A DNA stretch of 64,000 nt from Escherichia phage DCP2. The DNA is taken from sequence record OR780565.1; one strand, given 5' to 3'. A program made the translations under genes and the position numbers. Position 1 is the stretch's first letter; every line of letters begins with the position of its first letter. A model generated the notes under the pieces. It was not told the origin of the DNA and did not search any database. It worked only from the letters and a program-made list of their open reading frames with translations. Shown piece after piece: positions 21,702 to 41,750 of the stretch.

Positions 21702-21788
21702 GCGAGAATGGTCAAATTGGTAAAGGCACAGCACTTAAAATGCTGCGGAATGATTTCCTTGTGGGTTCGAGTCCCACTTCTCGCACCA
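21702..21788 (+). tRNA. tRNA-Leu (anticodon TAA), CCA encoded
   Basis: Acceptor GCGAGAA/TTCTCGC, anticodon loop CTTAAAA, long variable arm, T-arm GGTTCGAGTCC. Confidence 0.85.
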
Positions 21789-21793
21789 AATTT

Positions 21794-21867
<74 letters not shown>

Positions 21868-21876
21868 ATTTAATTT

Positions 21877-21950
21877 ACTCCGTGTAGCTCAGTTTGGTAG
21901 AGCGCCTGATTTGGGATCAGGAGGTCCAAGGTTCAAATCCTTGTATGGAG
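21877..21950 (+). tRNA. tRNA-Pro (anticodon TGG)
   Basis: Anticodon stem-loop CCTGA-TTTGGGA-TCAGG, T-arm GGTTCAAATCC. Confidence 0.8.
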
Positions 21951-21952
21951 AC

Positions 21953-22043
21953 TGGAGGCGTGGCAGAGTGGTTTAATGCACCGGTCTTGAAAACCGGCAG
22001 TCGCTCCGGCGACTCATAGGTTCAAATCCTATCGCCTCCGCCA
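21953..22043 (+). tRNA. tRNA-Ser (anticodon TGA), CCA encoded
   Basis: Anticodon stem-loop CCGGT-CTTGAAA-ACCGG, long variable arm, T-arm GGTTCAAATCC. Confidence 0.85.
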
Positions 22044-22048
22044 GTTTT

Positions 22049-22124
22049 GCTGATTTAGCTCAGTAGGTAGAGCAACTCACTTGTAATGAGAAGGTCGGCG
22101 GTTCGATTCCGTCAATCAGCACCA
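22049..22124 (+). tRNA. tRNA-Thr (anticodon TGT), CCA encoded
   Basis: Acceptor GCTGATT/AATCAGC, anticodon loop CTTGTAA, T-arm GGTTCGATTCC. Confidence 0.85.
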
Positions 22125-22125
22125 A

Positions 22126-22200
22126 GGCCCTGTAGCTGGAAGGTTCAAGCAAGCGACTCATAATCGCCAGATGGTGGTTCAATTCCACCCAGGGCCACCA
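22126..22200 (+). tRNA. tRNA with anticodon CAT (Ile by analogy with T4, or Met), CCA encoded
   Basis: Acceptor GGCCCTG/CAGGGCC, anticodon loop CTCATAA, T-arm GGTTCAATTCC. Confidence 0.8.
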
Positions 22201-22209
22201 AATTAATTT

Positions 22210-22296
22210 GGGGAGTTATCCCGTAGAGGTAGCGGTGTGGACTGTAAATCCATTGTCATTGCGACTCGGGTGGTTCGACTCCACCACTCCCCACCA
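22210..22296 (+). tRNA. tRNA-Tyr (anticodon GTA), CCA encoded
   Basis: Acceptor GGGGAGT/ACTCCCC, anticodon loop CTGTAAA, long variable arm, T-arm GGTTCGACTCC. Confidence 0.8.
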
Positions 22297-22300
22297 ATTT

Positions 22301-22375
22301 GGATGTGTAGCTCAATGGCAGAGCGATCGCCTGTTAAGCGATTGGTTATAGGTTCGAATCCTATCACGTCCGCCA
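22301..22375 (+). tRNA. tRNA-Asn (anticodon GTT), CCA encoded
   Basis: Anticodon stem-loop TCGC-CTGTTAA-GCGA, T-arm GGTTCGAATCC. Confidence 0.85.
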
Positions 22376-22489
22376 AATTTGTGACAACTGTCACATTAAT
22401 ATCTACTTGACGCGATTATAGGGGTTGAACTGATCACTCTTCTCTTAATTTCGTGTGAAGACATCTTGATTGTTGGAGTAGGTATTAAT

Positions 22490-22565
22490 GTGGCCGTAGT
22501 TCAGTTGGTAGAACTCGAGATTGTGATTCTCGTAGTCATGGGTTCGACTCCCATCGGTCACCCCA
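22490..22565 (+). tRNA. tRNA-His (anticodon GTG), CCA encoded
   Basis: Extra 5' G pairing with discriminator C, anticodon stem-loop CGAGA-TTGTGAT-TCTCG, T-arm GGTTCGACTCC. Confidence 0.8.
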
Positions 22566-22569
22566 ATTA

Positions 22570-22645
22570 CGGGGCATAGCTCAGAAGGAAGAGCAAGGAC
22601 CTTCTAAGTCCTAGGTCGTAGGTTCGATCCCTACTGCCTCGACCA
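22570..22645 (+). tRNA. tRNA-Arg (anticodon TCT), CCA encoded
   Basis: Anticodon stem-loop GGAC-CTTCTAA-GTCC, T-arm GGTTCGATCCC. Confidence 0.85.
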
Positions 22646-35655: not shown

Positions 35656-35685
35656 GTTTACTTTCCATTTGAGCTGTGATACTAT
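35656..35685 (+). promoter_or_regulatory. T4-type early promoter
   Basis: gtttac -35 and gtgatactatac -10. Confidence 0.6.
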
Positions 35686-35902: not shown

Positions 35903-36105
35903 TGACTAGAATTGAACAAGCAGATAAAATTAAAGAATTGGTAGCTTTAATTCGCAAAGCAGATGAGGAACTTAGTGACTTTGCTTGGTTTTCGGCAGGC
36001 ATTGCAAATAAAGGTATTGAAAAATTTGAAGCTAAAGTTGATAATGCTTTAGAAGCGTTAGATATGTTTCTTGATGAAATTATCGATCATAATACGAGAG
36101 TTTAA
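35902..36105 (+). CDS. Hypothetical protein
   Basis: 67-aa ORF (MTRIEQADK...), start overlapping the upstream stop. Confidence 0.4.
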   Translation: MTRIEQADKIKELVALIRKADEELSDFAWFSAGIANKGIEKFEAKVDNALEALDMFLDEIIDHNTRV

Positions 36106-36107
36106 TT

Positions 36108-36302
36108 ATGCTAACACGTGAACAGTTTGAAAAAATTATTAAATTAGCACGTGATATTGAAATAGATTCATACCAATTAGCAGTTGAGCATTGTGAAGGA
36201 TATTCATACGACGGTATAGAAGCAGCTAAAAAGGATTTGGATAAATCCAAAGCTAAGTTAGTTCAATATCTTGAAATGATTAGGTGGAATAATGAAAACT
36301 GA
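36108..36302 (+). CDS. Hypothetical protein
   Basis: 64-aa ORF. Confidence 0.4.
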   Translation: MLTREQFEKIIKLARDIEIDSYQLAVEHCEGYSYDGIEAAKKDLDKSKAKLVQYLEMIRWNNEN

Positions 36303-36465
36303 AAAGCAGATGTTTTTAATGAAGCTAATTGAAGAATATGCTAATGCAGTTTCTGACTATGAGTATTCTGCTCGGGAAAGAGGTACAGCTTTCGCAAAGG
36401 AAGAAATGAAAATCATGGTTGATGCTCACACAAAGCTTCAGAATTTTATTGAAAACGTCATTTAA
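36292..36465 (+). CDS. Small hypothetical protein (below ORF-track cutoff)
   Basis: 57-aa ORF MKTEKQMFLMKLIEEYANAV... overlapping the upstream stop. Confidence 0.35.
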   Translation: MKTEKQMFLMKLIEEYANAVSDYEYSARERGTAFAKEEMKIMVDAHTKLQNFIENVI

Positions 36466-36467
36466 TG

Positions 36468-36497
36468 GTTTACAAGTTGGCAAGATTATGATATAGT
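36468..36497 (+). promoter_or_regulatory. T4-type early promoter overlapped by an inverted repeat
   Basis: gtttac -35 and tatagt -10; inverted repeat caagatta/taatcttg at 36481-36504 spans the -10. Confidence 0.55.
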
Positions 36498-36656
36498 AAT
36501 CTTGTCAACTGCCAAGGAGAAGAGAATGAAAGTTTTGTTTGTTGTGTATGTGATGATTCAATATAATTATCCAATGTTTACTTATAATCTGGTGAACAAC
36601 ATTATTGATATTATTCAAAGGAGTATGTAATTGTGGGTGAGTCGAAGAGAATCAAT

Positions 36657-37190
36657 ATGAAACGATTAGTATTAGAAGTTAGTCCGCTTTTTGGTGAATT
36701 AGCTATAGAAAAAGTAAATAATATGTATCGTTTGACACAAGAAGACGATATGCTATATTTTACGCCTAGTGAAATCATTCATTTAACCCAAATTGAATAT
36801 CCTTATACTGATAAAATAGTAAGCATCAATGATGAGCACAAAATTCATTTTTATTCTTCATGCCCAGGATTTAATATTAAAAGTGAGTCAATGTGTTTAT
36901 CAGTTATCCATTGGGATAGTTTTATAGATAAGATTAAATATTTTTATTATTCTAATGAAAGAAAACATAGTTTAAAATGGCTCAAAAATTGCAATGCTAT
37001 TATTACTAACGCTTGCAATCAGAATGATGAAACTGTTTTAAACGTATCAAAATGCTATGAAGATGGTGATGTCTTAACTATTCGTCAAATTGATGATTTT
37101 CGATCGTATATTGTCACATTTACCAAAGACGAAGCTATTGCGCTAAAGACTTATCTCGATTCTGTCATTCCAACTATGATTTCAAAGTGA
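36657..37190 (+). CDS. Hypothetical protein (paralogue A)
   Basis: About 177 aa from ATG with SD; C-terminus TIRQIDDFRSYIVTFTKDEAIALKTYLDSVIPTM is paralogous to the next ORF. Confidence 0.5.
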   Translation: MKRLVLEVSPLFGELAIEKVNNMYRLTQEDDMLYFTPSEIIHLTQIEYPYTDKIVSINDEHKIHFYSSCPGFNIKSESMCLSVIHWDSFIDKIKYFYYSNERKHSLKWLKNCNAIITNACNQNDETVLNVSKCYEDGDVLTIRQIDDFRSYIVTFTKDEAIALKTYLDSVIPTMISK

Positions 37191-37196
37191 GGAAAT

Positions 37197-37718
37197 ATGT
37201 TTATTTCAAGTGGAAGTGGTTTAATTCGTGTTGAATTTAAAAATGACATCTTCCTTATTCAAGGAGATGATATTATTAAAATGAGTTATGATGAAATTAA
37301 GAAAATTTGTAATGCTCTTGAAAGTCATGGAAAAGTGAACGCTGTTATTGATATTGGTGATTTATGGGTGACACTTTATGAAGTATCCGAAGGATTTAAT
37401 ATTGAAGATGAAAACAACATCTTAGCTATTGATAAAAGAAGCGATTTGTTTGATGTGTTAAAAGTTTATGAACAGTCAAACGGTGGAAGAAAAGCCGTAT
37501 TGATTTATCAAAAACCGCATTCATGTGGAACTGCTTCAATCATTTCAAATATTGAAGATGAAACTGATACTTATATGTGTGTTTTGAAAGCTGGCCGTGA
37601 CCGTCATCCGGATTTTATTTCTATTCGTCAAAACAATGAAGAAATTTCATTATCAAAATCAGAAGCTGAAGCTATGATTAAGTATTTAACAACTGTTACA
37701 CCTTCAATGAAAGGATAA
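37197..37718 (+). CDS. Hypothetical protein (paralogue B)
   Basis: 173 aa; C-terminus ISIRQNNEEISLSKSEAEAMIKYLTTVTPSM. Confidence 0.5.
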   Translation: MFISSGSGLIRVEFKNDIFLIQGDDIIKMSYDEIKKICNALESHGKVNAVIDIGDLWVTLYEVSEGFNIEDENNILAIDKRSDLFDVLKVYEQSNGGRKAVLIYQKPHSCGTASIISNIEDETDTYMCVLKAGRDRHPDFISIRQNNEEISLSKSEAEAMIKYLTTVTPSMKG

Positions 37719-37720
37719 TT

Positions 37721-38182
37721 ATGATTATTAATGAAAACTCTTGGCACTATAAATTATTCAAACTGTTTAACGACGAATGGAAACGACCTAAGACACTGTG
37801 TGCATACTTTTGGTCTATTGTTATCCCTACATTTTTCGTTTCTTTTTTCGGATGTACTATACTCGCAGGTCTAACTATCATCTGTGCAGAAATCATACAG
37901 AAATGGCTTATTTTTGGTAGTTTATGGACTCTTATTCCATCAGCATTTGTACTTGCCATTTTGCTTGTTTTACTTATTATCGGTTCATTTGTTATTCCTG
38001 CACAACTGCGTGAAAAATATAAAGATTATAAATGGAAAAAGGATTATGCTTTACACGTAGAAAATATTGATAGGGCGTATAAAGGTTTACCTCCTATTCA
38101 ACCCAAGAAATCTATTATCGTCGAATTTTTAAAAGCTCGTAAAGCTAAAGTATGTCCTGTTATTGAATATAAGGCTGAATGA
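37721..38182 (+). CDS. Polytopic small membrane protein
   Basis: 153 aa with about three hydrophobic helices; basic C-terminal tail. Confidence 0.5.
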   Translation: MIINENSWHYKLFKLFNDEWKRPKTLCAYFWSIVIPTFFVSFFGCTILAGLTIICAEIIQKWLIFGSLWTLIPSAFVLAILLVLLIIGSFVIPAQLREKYKDYKWKKDYALHVENIDRAYKGLPPIQPKKSIIVEFLKARKAKVCPVIEYKAE

Positions 38183-39192
38183 TGAAAACAGTAATGAAAA
38201 GCTATTTTGGTAGTCATCTTTATGGAACTTCTACTCCAGAATCTGATGTAGATTTTAAAGAAATCTTTGTTCCTCCTGCTCGCGATATTCTTATCGGAAA
38301 TGTTAAAGAGCATATGAGTAAAAACACTAACAACACATCATCTAAAAACACTAAAGATGATATTGACCACGAATTGTATAGTCTTAAATATTTCTTTAAA
38401 TTAGCAGCAGATGGTGAAACTGTAGCGTTAGATATGCTTCACACTCCACCTGAGTTAGTGGTTAAATCTGATTTGCCTGATGTGTGGAAGTTTATTCAAG
38501 ACAACCGTTCTCGTTTTTATACGACTAACATGAAATCCTATTTAGGATATGTCCGTAAGCAAGCTTCTAAATACGGCGTTAAGGGTTCTCGTTTGGCTGC
38601 ATTACGTGATGTATTGAAAGTAGTTAATCAAATCCCTGAGAAATGGGTTGATTACCAAGAAGATGGTTCTATTAAGCAGCGTCGTACTAAAGTTGAAGAT
38701 ATTAAGCATCGTCTTCCAGAAAACGAATTCTGTGAATGGGTGTTCCATAATCATGAGAAAACAGGCCCACAGACGTTCTACACAGTGTTGGGTCGTAAAT
38801 ATCAGACAACGCTTTCTCTTATTGAGCTTAAGCAGTCACTGAACAAATTAGATGCTGAATACGGTGAACGTGCTCGTAAGGCCGAAGCCAATGAAGGTAT
38901 TGACTGGAAAGCTCTGAGTCATGCTTGCCGTGGTGGACTCCAACTATTGGAAATTTACAAAACTGGTGACTTGGTTTATCCACTCCAAGATGCTCCATTT
39001 ATTCTCGACGTGAAGTTGGGTAAACATCCATTTAAAACGGTTCAAGAGTTTTTGGAAGATGTGGTCGATCAAGTAGAAGCAGCATCTACTGAAGCTTCTA
39101 AGAACGGTATGCAGCAAAAAGTAGACATGGGTTTTTGGGATGACTTCCTTGAGAGGGTTTATCTTGAAAACCACCGAAGTTATTATAAATGA
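38179..39192 (+). CDS. Pol-beta-superfamily nucleotidyltransferase-fold protein
   Basis: N-terminal F-G-S-x10-D-V-D-F fits hG[GS]x9-13Dh[DE]h; helical C-terminal region; ATGA overlap with the membrane ORF. Confidence 0.5.
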   Translation: MMKTVMKSYFGSHLYGTSTPESDVDFKEIFVPPARDILIGNVKEHMSKNTNNTSSKNTKDDIDHELYSLKYFFKLAADGETVALDMLHTPPELVVKSDLPDVWKFIQDNRSRFYTTNMKSYLGYVRKQASKYGVKGSRLAALRDVLKVVNQIPEKWVDYQEDGSIKQRRTKVEDIKHRLPENEFCEWVFHNHEKTGPQTFYTVLGRKYQTTLSLIELKQSLNKLDAEYGERARKAEANEGIDWKALSHACRGGLQLLEIYKTGDLVYPLQDAPFILDVKLGKHPFKTVQEFLEDVVDQVEAASTEASKNGMQQKVDMGFWDDFLERVYLENHRSYYK

Positions 39193-39194
39193 TA

Positions 39195-39220
39195 GGGAGC
39201 CTTCGGGCTCCCTTTTTTTA
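39195..39220 (+). terminator. Rho-independent terminator
   Basis: gggagc-cttc-gggctccc hairpin followed by ttttttt. Confidence 0.75.
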
Positions 39221-39243
39221 TTTCAAAAATTTTTCACAAAATT

Positions 39244-39273
39244 GTTTACAAGCATAAAGCTTTATGGTACTAT
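39244..39273 (+). promoter_or_regulatory. T4-type early promoter
   Basis: gtttac -35 and tggtactatac -10. Confidence 0.6.
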
Positions 39274-39310
39274 ACAACTATCAAAACAAACACTTAAACG
39301 GAAAAACAAA

Positions 39311-39460
39311 ATGAAAATTACACCAATTGAAGTAAAAAAGTTGATTGACACAGAAGAAATTTCAGAGTGTTTTGAAAGTTTCTTAGAAGATGCAACTGAA
39401 GATAATGCAGTTTATCTCGCTCAGAAAATTATCGAAACTTATTTGGAGAAGAATCAATGA
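39311..39460 (+). CDS. Small acidic hypothetical protein
   Basis: 49-aa ORF downstream of the promoter, coupled to the next ORF. Confidence 0.35.
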   Translation: MKITPIEVKKLIDTEEISECFESFLEDATEDNAVYLAQKIIETYLEKNQ

Positions 39461-39720
39461 CAGTTTACGTAGATGTTTTAATGAATCATGGATGGAAACT
39501 TCGCGGTCATCCAACTAAAAATTGTCATATGTTCACTGATGGAGATATTGAAGAGCTTCATGAAATGGCAGAAGCAATAGGAATGAAACGTTCTTGGTTT
39601 CAAGATAAACGCATTAAACATTATGACTTACACGCTCGCCGACGCCAAAAAGCTGTAGAACTTGGAGCTGTAGAAGTATCTCGCCGTGAAGCAGTAAAAA
39701 TTTGGCGAACGTTAAAATAA
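39457..39720 (+). CDS. Hypothetical basic protein
   Basis: 87-aa ORF MTVYVDVLMNHGWKLRGHPTKNCHMFTDGDIEELHEMAEAIGMKRSWFQ...; no CxxC, so not the thioredoxin. Confidence 0.45.
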   Translation: MTVYVDVLMNHGWKLRGHPTKNCHMFTDGDIEELHEMAEAIGMKRSWFQDKRIKHYDLHARRRQKAVELGAVEVSRREAVKIWRTLK

Positions 39721-39723
39721 ATT

Positions 39724-39753
39724 GTTTACAGAAGGGTAGTAGTGTGATACTAT
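39724..39753 (+). promoter_or_regulatory. T4-type early promoter
   Basis: gtttac -35 and gtgatactat -10. Confidence 0.6.
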
Positions 39754-39789
39754 TACCCTATCAAAACAAATGTGAGATTGGAGAATAAA

Positions 39790-40758
39790 ATGAAAACTGT
39801 AACTATCAATAAGGGTATCTACTTCGGTAAAGAAATCTCTGGAACTTTTGAGCTCTTAGGTGAATGGTTCCCAGATAATGCTCCGGTAGATGCACAAGGA
39901 GATGGTAAAGTTTTTGTTGAAATTGACGGTAAGCGTCGCGGTGTTTGGGTTTACAAATCAGACATTTCATATGATGGTGTAAAAGTTGAAGAAGTTAAAG
40001 AATCATATGAAGATATGAAAACCCGCATTAATAAAAGATTTAATGTTATGGGAATGATGACGAATGGTATTATTAATGGAAATATTCGTTCATTAATTAT
40101 CTCTGGCGCAGCAGGTATTGGTAAAACGTATTCTTTAGATAAAGCTTTAAATAAAGCAAATGATATTGGATACATTGAATATAAAAGCATTAATGGTAAA
40201 ATCTCTGGTATTGGTCTTTATGAGCAGCTTTGGAATAATCGTGAAGAGAATTCTGTCCTTTTGATTGATGATGTGGATGTTTTCTCTGATATGGACATTC
40301 TTAATCTTCTGAAAGCTGCTCTGGACACTGGAGAGACCCGTAAAGTCTGCTGGAGCACCGCATCTTCTTACTTAGAAGAAAAAGGCATTGAGCGTGAGTT
40401 TGAATTTAAAGGAACGATTGTTTTTATCACAAACGTTGACATTGACCGCGAATTAGACCGTGGTACTAAACTTGCTCCACATTTACAAGCATTAGTGTCC
40501 CGCTCGGTTTATTTGGATTTGGGTGTTCACACTAATGAAGAAATTATGGTCAGGGTTGAAGATGTTATTCTTTCAACTGACATGATGCAAAAGCGCGGTC
40601 TTTCTGATGAAGAAACTTATAAAGCATTATCATGGATGAAAGTTAATGTTAATCGTTTACGCAATGTTTCACTGCGTACTGCTCTTTATCTTGCTGACTT
40701 TATTATGACCGACAAAAACGGTTGGGAAGAAATTGCTGAGGTTACTCTTCTGAAATAA
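39790..40758 (+). CDS. P-loop ATPase
   Basis: Walker A GAAGIGKT, Walker B VLLIDDVD; about 322 aa. Confidence 0.55.
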   Translation: MKTVTINKGIYFGKEISGTFELLGEWFPDNAPVDAQGDGKVFVEIDGKRRGVWVYKSDISYDGVKVEEVKESYEDMKTRINKRFNVMGMMTNGIINGNIRSLIISGAAGIGKTYSLDKALNKANDIGYIEYKSINGKISGIGLYEQLWNNREENSVLLIDDVDVFSDMDILNLLKAALDTGETRKVCWSTASSYLEEKGIEREFEFKGTIVFITNVDIDRELDRGTKLAPHLQALVSRSVYLDLGVHTNEEIMVRVEDVILSTDMMQKRGLSDEETYKALSWMKVNVNRLRNVSLRTALYLADFIMTDKNGWEEIAEVTLLK

Positions 40759-41222: not shown

Positions 41223-41750
41223 ATGAACGCTAAAGATATTTTCAACTTAGTAAATTATAACGATGGTAAATTTAAATCTGAAGCACAAAGCAAGTTCTTT
41301 AATGACATCTCAATCGGAGGTGAAATCACGGTTGATGGAGGACAAATTTACAAATCCCGTTGGAATTGGATCGTTATTATCGATGAGATTGGTATTGTAG
41401 AAATTTACAAGAATACGAATAAAAATCGTACATTACACTGGTCTCGTGATACTAATGAACAGTACAAAAAGGATAAAGCATCTAAATTATCTCGTGTAAC
41501 TCAAGAAGATATTGAGTTCATCAAGAAAGATATTTTGATGTATGATAACTTAATTGCTGAAGAGCAAGCTGTTATTGATAAATTTGATGAGATTAAAGCT
41601 TCTCGTGAAATTCCTGATTTTATGAAAGAATCAGTAAATGAACGATACACTCTCATTTCAGAGCGTATTGAAACTTACAAAAAGCAAAGAGCTGAACGCC
41701 AAAATACTCTTCGGAAGTTTGAAGAACGGTTAAAGACGGTACTCGCATAA
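41223..41750 (+). CDS. Hypothetical protein
   Basis: 175-aa ORF with charged C-terminal helical region. Confidence 0.45.
   Translation: MNAKDIFNLVNYNDGKFKSEAQSKFFNDISIGGEITVDGGQIYKSRWNWIVIIDEIGIVEIYKNTNKNRTLHWSRDTNEQYKKDKASKLSRVTQEDIEFIKKDILMYDNLIAEEQAVIDKFDEIKASREIPDFMKESVNERYTLISERIETYKKQRAERQNTLRKFEERLKTVLA

Follow-up and report, generated by a model that had tools for sequence, protein, structure and literature searches.

We examined a 64,000-nucleotide (nt) stretch of the genome of Escherichia phage DCP2 (OR780565.1; this whole stretch is hereafter the window), focusing on the segment at 36468-39220, which a first reading of the letters (the original prediction) had described as a promoter-to-terminator operon for a nucleotidyltransferase-fold protein, a polytopic membrane protein and two paralogues. 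The surrounding stretch, 36400-39300, matches 659 phage records, nearly all of them Tequatrovirus and relatives, with the best match at 99.2% in Escherichia phages U115 and ECO07P4. By sequence the window is thus that of a T4-like phage, a Tequatrovirus, and the segment is one of its ordinary early transcription units, situated in the hyperplastic tk-nrdC region. The last gene of the unit is nrdC.11, which encodes a nucleotidyltransferase (NTase) of the RlaP family that probably acts in RNA repair. An early promoter of the promoter-early stem-loop (PeSL) type would drive mobD.2, mobD.1, a second mobD.1 paralogue, a small membrane protein and nrdC.11, with an intrinsic terminator ending the unit:

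36468-36497, + strand: T4-type early (sigma-70) promoter, GTTTAC-N18-TATAGT with TG before the -10; 10/12 to the sigma-70 consensus.
36475-36510, + strand: PeSL stem-loop; two arms of 14 nt each (36475-36488, 36497-36510; 93% complementary), 8 nt apart.
36526-36630, + strand: mobD.2 homologue, 34 amino acids (aa); phrog_3515, E 6.5e-22; 91% identity to T4 MobD.2; Shine-Dalgarno sequence AAGGAG.
36657-37190, + strand: paralogue A, MobD.1, y05I family with N- and C-terminal domains (PF24449, E 3e-39; PF24448, E 1.2e-20); 86% to T4 MobD.1.
37197-37718, + strand: paralogue B, a second y05I-family protein (PF24449, E 1e-34; PF24448, E 7.8e-24); full gene absent in T4.
37721-38182, + strand: membrane protein M, 153 aa, predicted inner-membrane from hydropathy; phrog_944 'membrane protein', E 1.3e-49; absent in T4.
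38179-39192, + strand: NrdC.11, RlaP-family (PF10127) Pol-beta NTase by sequence and model, 337 aa; G11-S12, D23, D25 and D63, then a C-terminal helical domain.
39194-39220, + strand: intrinsic terminator; 8-bp stem with six G-C pairs and a 4-nt UUCG loop (39194-39213), then a T7 run.

The four packed open reading frames (ORFs) that follow mobD.2, with gaps of 6 nt and 2 nt and then an ATGA overlap, all lie at the coordinates originally proposed for them. NrdC.11 is 98% identical to the T4 protein (NP_049709; nrdC.11 or tk.-11) over its full length, so the earlier suggestion that it might be an nrdC.x-type ORF of T4-like phages was right. Its start is ambiguous, at ATG 38179 or 38182; the T4 and D5505 annotations use 38182 (336 aa).

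Several lines of evidence place NrdC.11 in a family, which the original prediction had thought could not be assigned. Pfam PF10127 (RlaP) matches residues 7-135 at 44.3 bits against a gathering threshold of 23 (E 2.4e-11), and PHROG 388 'nucleotidyltransferase' matches at E 9e-137; precomputed PF10127 assignments stand on nearly all of the ~240 NrdC.11 relatives listed, and an exhaustive HMMER search with the NTase collected 3429 representative clusters at E <= 0.001. The F-G-S-x10-D-V-D-F motif noticed earlier is indeed present near the N terminus: F10-G11-S12 corresponds to the Pol-beta hG[GS] motif where strand 1 ends, D23-V-D25-F to the [DE]h[DE]h motif, and D63, on model strand 62-68, to the third carboxylate. 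In two alignments of diverse homologues, with 44 and 71 sequences at 26-88% identity, G11, S12, S22, D23 and D25 never vary, and D63, K244, R251, R231 and H248 vary rarely or never. The 71-sequence alignment yielded an AlphaFold model (pLDDT 92, pTM 0.79) that contains the minimal NTase alpha/beta fold, running strand, G-S, helix, strand with D-x-D and later strand with D63, and continues into a helical domain (helices 214-336). Sequence and model together thus bear out the proposed NTase fold and assign NrdC.11 to the RlaP family of Pol-beta nucleotidyltransferases. In the PDB, neither sequence nor profile searches turned up a credible match for the NTase, M or the y05I family (all E >= 0.5), and NCBIfam and PADLOC held no meaningful match for any of the four proteins.

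RNA repair was discovered in T4, and Burroughs and Aravind reportedly named PF10127 RlaP for its linkage to RNA ligases. In jumbo phages the distribution of RlaP mirrors that of RNA ligases, and RlaP is predicted to restore nucleotides taken by nucleases such as RloC before ligation (Iyer et al. 2021, PMC7824862). RloC excises the wobble nucleotide of its transfer RNA (tRNA) target, a lesion expected to defeat T4-type tRNA repair (PMC2610378, PMC3458546). Two Pseudomonas RlaP enzymes add one or two nucleoside monophosphates (NMPs) to RNA 3'-OH ends; they are inactive on DNA and protein, prefer Mn2+, favour the 5' half of cleaved tRNA and partly rescue aminoacylation of repaired tRNA missing one anticodon-loop nucleotide (December 2025 preprint, PMC12776372).

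By analogy with this bacterial biochemistry, NrdC.11 is probably an RNA-repair NTase that refills the nucleotides of ribotoxin-cleaved tRNA. With two metal ions bound by D23, D25 and D63, it would extend broken RNA at the 3'-OH by one or two untemplated NMPs, its main substrate being tRNA 5' halves left without the wobble nucleotide by RloC-type anticodon nucleases; phage Pnkp and Rnl1 could then ligate a full-length anticodon loop, restoring some functional tRNA. Since the RlaP product carries a 3'-OH, as a 5'-phosphate ligase requires, it would be compatible with T4 Pnkp and Rnl1. NrdC.11 resembles the RlaP enzymes of P. fluorescens and P. aeruginosa in its above-cut-off PF10127 match and in its three conserved Asp residues and G-S motif. 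The crystal structure of P. fluorescens RlaP combines an NTase domain, a helical domain and a C-terminal helix that packs back; the model of NrdC.11 shows an N-terminal NTase domain and a helical domain after it. Some phage relatives of NrdC.11 lie beside RtcB or RNA ligase genes. Eight phage contigs were surveyed, seven from distant relatives and one from an annotated phage, and we report raw counts with no background rate. One distant relative has RtcB and a CCA-adding-type enzyme within 3.5 kb of the NTase; in a second, genes for a Tpt1-type 2'-phosphotransferase, an RNA ligase and a Macro domain lie at most 5 kb away; a third has a CCA-adding-type enzyme 4.7 kb away; and in Rheinheimera phage Barba19A a tRNA nucleotidyltransferase lies two genes upstream of the NTase relative. 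Counted this way, RNA ligase or end-healing genes lie near the NTase in 2-4 of the eight, and three have no relevant neighbour. These contexts agree with an RNA-repair theme.

Several points weigh against this reading. The repair genes of T4 are not known to map near nrdC.11; in the window and the straboviruses examined, the annotated genes surrounding nrdC.11 include no identified RNA-repair gene, and three or four of the eight distant neighbourhoods, again counted with no background rate, hold none. The Pfam match spans only the N-terminal half of the protein, residues 7-135, and the C-terminal substrate-binding domain may differ from that of RlaP. Measured RlaP activity comes from the Pseudomonas enzymes only, which belong to cluster 1a, whereas T4 NrdC.11 is placed explicitly in PF10127 cluster 5, apart from that characterised cluster (PMC12776372); nor does nrdC.11 lie in an rtcBA operon. 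A T4 deletion of nrdC.11-mobD.3 is viable on laboratory hosts (PMC9825161), which offers no positive evidence, although it fits what is expected of an accessory counter-defence gene. As for the transcription unit itself, the predicted operon stands in that a promoter opens it and a terminator closes it, and 36468-39220 contains no other early-type promoter and no late (TATAAATA) or middle (MotA-box) one, but a near-consensus sigma-70 site lies within gene A at 36732-36759 (TTGACA-16-TATATT with TG, 11/12), which could be an internal promoter or a chance match in AT-rich sequence; co-transcription of the cluster is a reading of sequence only.

One alternative keeps the chemistry of RlaP and moves it elsewhere: NrdC.11 might act on RNA 3' ends outside anticodon-loop repair, rebuilding tRNA CCA ends or tailing host or phage transcripts. 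In the distant phage loci the most frequent neighbour is a CCA-adding-type enzyme, and RlaP has little NTP specificity and also labels full-length tRNA and species of the size of ribosomal RNA; set against this, it favours 5' halves of cleaved tRNA above the natural 3' end (PMC12776372), and the association of RlaP in jumbo phages is with ligases (PMC7824862). We regard such a role as unlikely.

A second alternative concerns the neighbours of nrdC.11, and is best judged by comparison with T4. BLAST against the T4 reference gave two colinear blocks, window 36012-37215 with T4 58445-57258 (91%) and window 38178-39284 with T4 56449-55344 (96%); between them lie 962 bp encoding B and M in the window and 808 bp encoding the HNH homing endonuclease MobD, directly preceding nrdC.11, in T4. 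Comparison of T4 57282-57209 with window 37191-37215 showed that T4 holds the ribosome-binding site and first six codons (MFISSG) of B directly after the mobD.1 stop, followed by mobD. Because of this remnant we consider the T4 arrangement derived, the homing endonuclease having replaced B and M in the T4 lineage; from these sequences, the order MobD.1-M-NrdC.11 of the window is the common and ancestral one. Otherwise the two loci are alike, with nrdC.11 downstream of mobD.1, upstream of nrdC.10 and at the same terminator region. The number of phage records with a tblastn match, among 50,697 searched, agrees with a derived T4 arrangement:

NrdC.11: 1518 records.
NrdC.10: 1311 records.
M: 859 records.
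MobD.1 family (A): 726 records.
B: 453 records.
True MobD (at least 95% identity): 47 records.

In RB16 a different homing endonuclease lies directly upstream of nrdC.11, which, with that of T4, suggests an insertion hotspot.

MobD.1, M and NrdC.11 could form one functional module, for example with the y05I proteins regulating the enzyme or M localising it. The order MobD.1-M-NrdC.11 and the M/NrdC.11 stop-start overlap are kept not only in Tequatrovirus but also in JK45, RB69 (Mosigvirus), JS98 (Dhakavirus) and VR7 (Gaprivervirus), and even Acinetobacter phage KARL-1 has an M homologue two genes upstream of the NTase. Gene order is generally conserved in this phage family, however; T4 lost B and M to the homing endonuclease and retained NrdC.11; Jiaodavirus and Gelderlandvirus have M, with two or three unrelated genes separating it from the NTase, and no A; and the NTase relatives outside Straboviridae have no M-like neighbour. 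The proposed pairing of NTase and membrane protein as a module is thus unsupported, and a functional unit of this kind seems to us improbable. Because T4 keeps NrdC.11 without B and M, and because the distributions are nested rather than matched, we view the y05I paralogues and M as co-expressed accessory proteins and not as required partners of NrdC.11.

Somewhat less likely still is that NrdC.11 nucleotidylates a protein, AMPylating a host HEPN-type toxin as MntA does, or a small molecule, as aminoglycoside and lincosamide NTases do; its motif and fold are those of the Pol-beta superfamily at large, and the Pseudomonas RlaP enzymes are the inactive-on-protein enzymes described above.

We consider it very improbable that the NTase makes or destroys a nucleotide second messenger, in the manner of a CD-NTase or of an anti-CBASS, anti-Thoeris or anti-Pycsar protein, with M as effector or partner. 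The NTase motif is present, and the 4-nt overlap of M with the NTase gene and their adjacency recur in several genera; yet none of the four proteins has a credible PADLOC match (that of M is sub-threshold, E 0.019), T4 has NrdC.11 without M, and the records of the two are unequal (1518 against 859). NrdC.11 itself shows neither the similarity nor the linked effector of the CD-NTase (cGAS-DncV) class: it has no PADLOC match, and no CD-NTase is found among its structural neighbours, leaving the nucleotide-signalling module of the original prediction unsupported. Equally remote is a functional M-NrdC.11 pairing in which the NTase makes short oligonucleotides for a membrane target, as a Hailong-like switch or as a decoy keeping host Hailong-type channels closed, rather than repairing tRNA: HalB is the best structural neighbour of NrdC.11, at 14% identity over 138 aligned residues of 337, but Hailong (HalB NTase with HalA membrane channel, Tan et al. 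2025) belongs to another Pfam family, NrdC.11 has no PADLOC match, no solved chain credibly matches M by sequence, and the M-N linkage is dispensable in T4, so that the obligate pairing of a HalB-like NTase with a HalA-like membrane effector is not found here. On the structural-neighbour, PADLOC and PDB comparisons, CD-NTase/signalling and Hailong were both rejected as family assignments.

If NrdC.11 does refill cleaved tRNA, the classic Pnkp/Rnl1 pathway of T4 would gain its missing third enzyme, and the tRNA arms race a further round; the immune evasion first suggested for this region is then plausible as tRNA or RNA repair against host ribotoxins, and not as nucleotide signalling. The gene, its family, the chemistry of that family and the proposed anti-ribotoxin role, including the idea of nucleotide restoration, have all been published before, and T4 would allow a clean test of the RloC hypothesis. 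What the window adds is comparative detail only: the ancestral order MobD.1-M-NrdC.11, the derived mobD insertion in T4 and a covariation-supported PeSL promoter.

NrdC.10 (window 39772-40758) is a 328-aa P-loop protein with the motif GAAGIGKT and sub-threshold AAA/STAND Pfam matches. In T4, JK45, CGG4-1 and probably KARL-1, one or two small genes separate it from NrdC.11, which precedes it, and its distribution is nearer to that of the NTase than are those of M, A and B. Name-derived misannotation is widespread in GenBank, where both NrdC.11 and NrdC.10 are called 'thioredoxin'.

The promoter of the unit, at 36468-36497, was correctly called as a T4-type early promoter. Shuffled sequences contain the pattern GTTTAC-N16-18-TAnnnT 2.6 +/- 1.7 times, whereas the window has it 17 times, with 16 sites on the + strand; because of this enrichment we count the 36468 promoter among the real early promoters of T4 type. 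It is conserved across T4, D5505, JK45 and RB69. An inverted repeat overlaps it, as predicted, although with arms of 14 nt and not 8 bp. The -10 hexamer lies in and next to the loop of this stem-loop, whose RNA fold has an energy of -22.2 kcal/mol (z = -4.7). Its T4 counterpart is a perfect 13-bp version, JK45 and RB69 have other sequence at the site with three compensatory double substitutions relative to the window, and the stem contains G.T wobbles in the window and D5505. Repeats of at least 6 bp around the -10 are found at 5 of the 16 early-type promoters in the window, compared with 7.7% of random positions; besides 36475-36510, stem-loops enclosing the -10 recur at the early promoters 19747, 20045, 25054 and 39724.

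PeSLs are strong early promoters with a stem-loop that mostly overlaps the -10 and attenuates transcription from upstream, and they mediate cassette shuffling (Arbiol et al. 2010, PMC2839356). As in the PeSLs of T4-type phages, a strong sigma-70-like early promoter here occupies an AT-rich intergenic spacer, between an upstream stop and a Shine-Dalgarno sequence and ATG directly downstream, and a stable stem-loop with G.T pairs overlaps its -10; by sequence, promoter and stem-loop together are this published element. The original cases, in RB49 and phi1 (which are not Tequatrovirus), have stems of G/C tracts, whereas the stem in the window is A/T-richer. The inverted repeat might instead be an operator for the 'putative transcription factor' paralogues that follow it, but we disfavour this: since G.T wobbles are tolerated and the element fits the PeSL class, a stem-loop acting at the level of RNA or single strands is preferred. 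The next upstream unit begins at an early promoter at 35656 and has no terminator before 36468, which leaves the PeSL stem-loop as the sole candidate insulator from that unit.

At the other end, the hairpin with T7 run that was proposed to close the cluster is present and begins at 39194; it folds at -17.1 kcal/mol (z = -3.7) and is annotated as a terminator in phage D5505 too. Beyond it, at 39285-39777, lies a 493-bp cassette (a 49-aa ORF and an 87-aa DUF4031 protein) that is absent from T4. The cassette sits between the early promoters 39244 and 39724, with T4 homology stopping just past the first and restarting just past the second, and the sequence breaks around it are the pattern expected from PeSL-mediated cassette shuffling.

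The micro-ORF at the head of the unit is, by sequence, MobD.2, a conserved protein; its description as hydrophobic holds only moderately, with no 19-residue window attaining a Kyte-Doolittle (KD) value of 1.6. ORF A is likewise identified as MobD.1, with GTG 36633 possible as a start instead of ATG 36657. A and B are paralogues, as had been noticed: BLASTP aligns them at 28% identity (E 3e-10), and they share PF24449 and PF24448, which score 134 and 74 bits in A and 120 and 84 bits in B against Pfam cut-offs of 24.9 and 27. Pfam labels both domains 'y05I-like putative transcription factor', and a literature search on 'mobD.1' and 'y05I' found nothing functional. The AlphaFold model of B, from a 9-sequence alignment, has a pLDDT of 55. 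We rejected nrdC.8 (41223-41750) as a third y05I paralogue, as it has no Pfam match. A 179-aa metagenomic protein, P0395, follows A over its N-terminal ~120 residues and B over its C-terminal part, and this chimera is therefore evidence of recombination between the tandem paralogues. In GenBank, MobD.1 and MobD.4 (including mobD.4 of T4, NC_000866) are mislabelled 'molybdopterin-guanine dinucleotide biosynthesis protein MobD'.

M has a single continuous hydrophobic region at residues ~25-98, basic termini with a basic C-terminal tail, and a conserved N-terminal motif. The hydrophobic core of the original prediction stands; its count of about three helices is not firm, and the region fits two to four. 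Apart from the sub-threshold PADLOC match given above, M has no informative Pfam, NCBIfam, PADLOC or PDB match. Its homologues lie upstream of nrdC.11 in JK45, RB69, JS98, VR7, Jiaodavirus, Gelderlandvirus and KARL-1.

An Rfam scan of the window found only a cluster of ten tRNA genes at 21702-22642 on the + strand, ~14 kb upstream of the NTase, and no match in the mobD.2-nrdC.11 region. Just upstream of the promoter, the ORFs 36108-36302 and 36292-36465 are tandem DUF7438 paralogues (E 1.5e-17 and 3.5e-16), a second tandem duplication in the same stretch.

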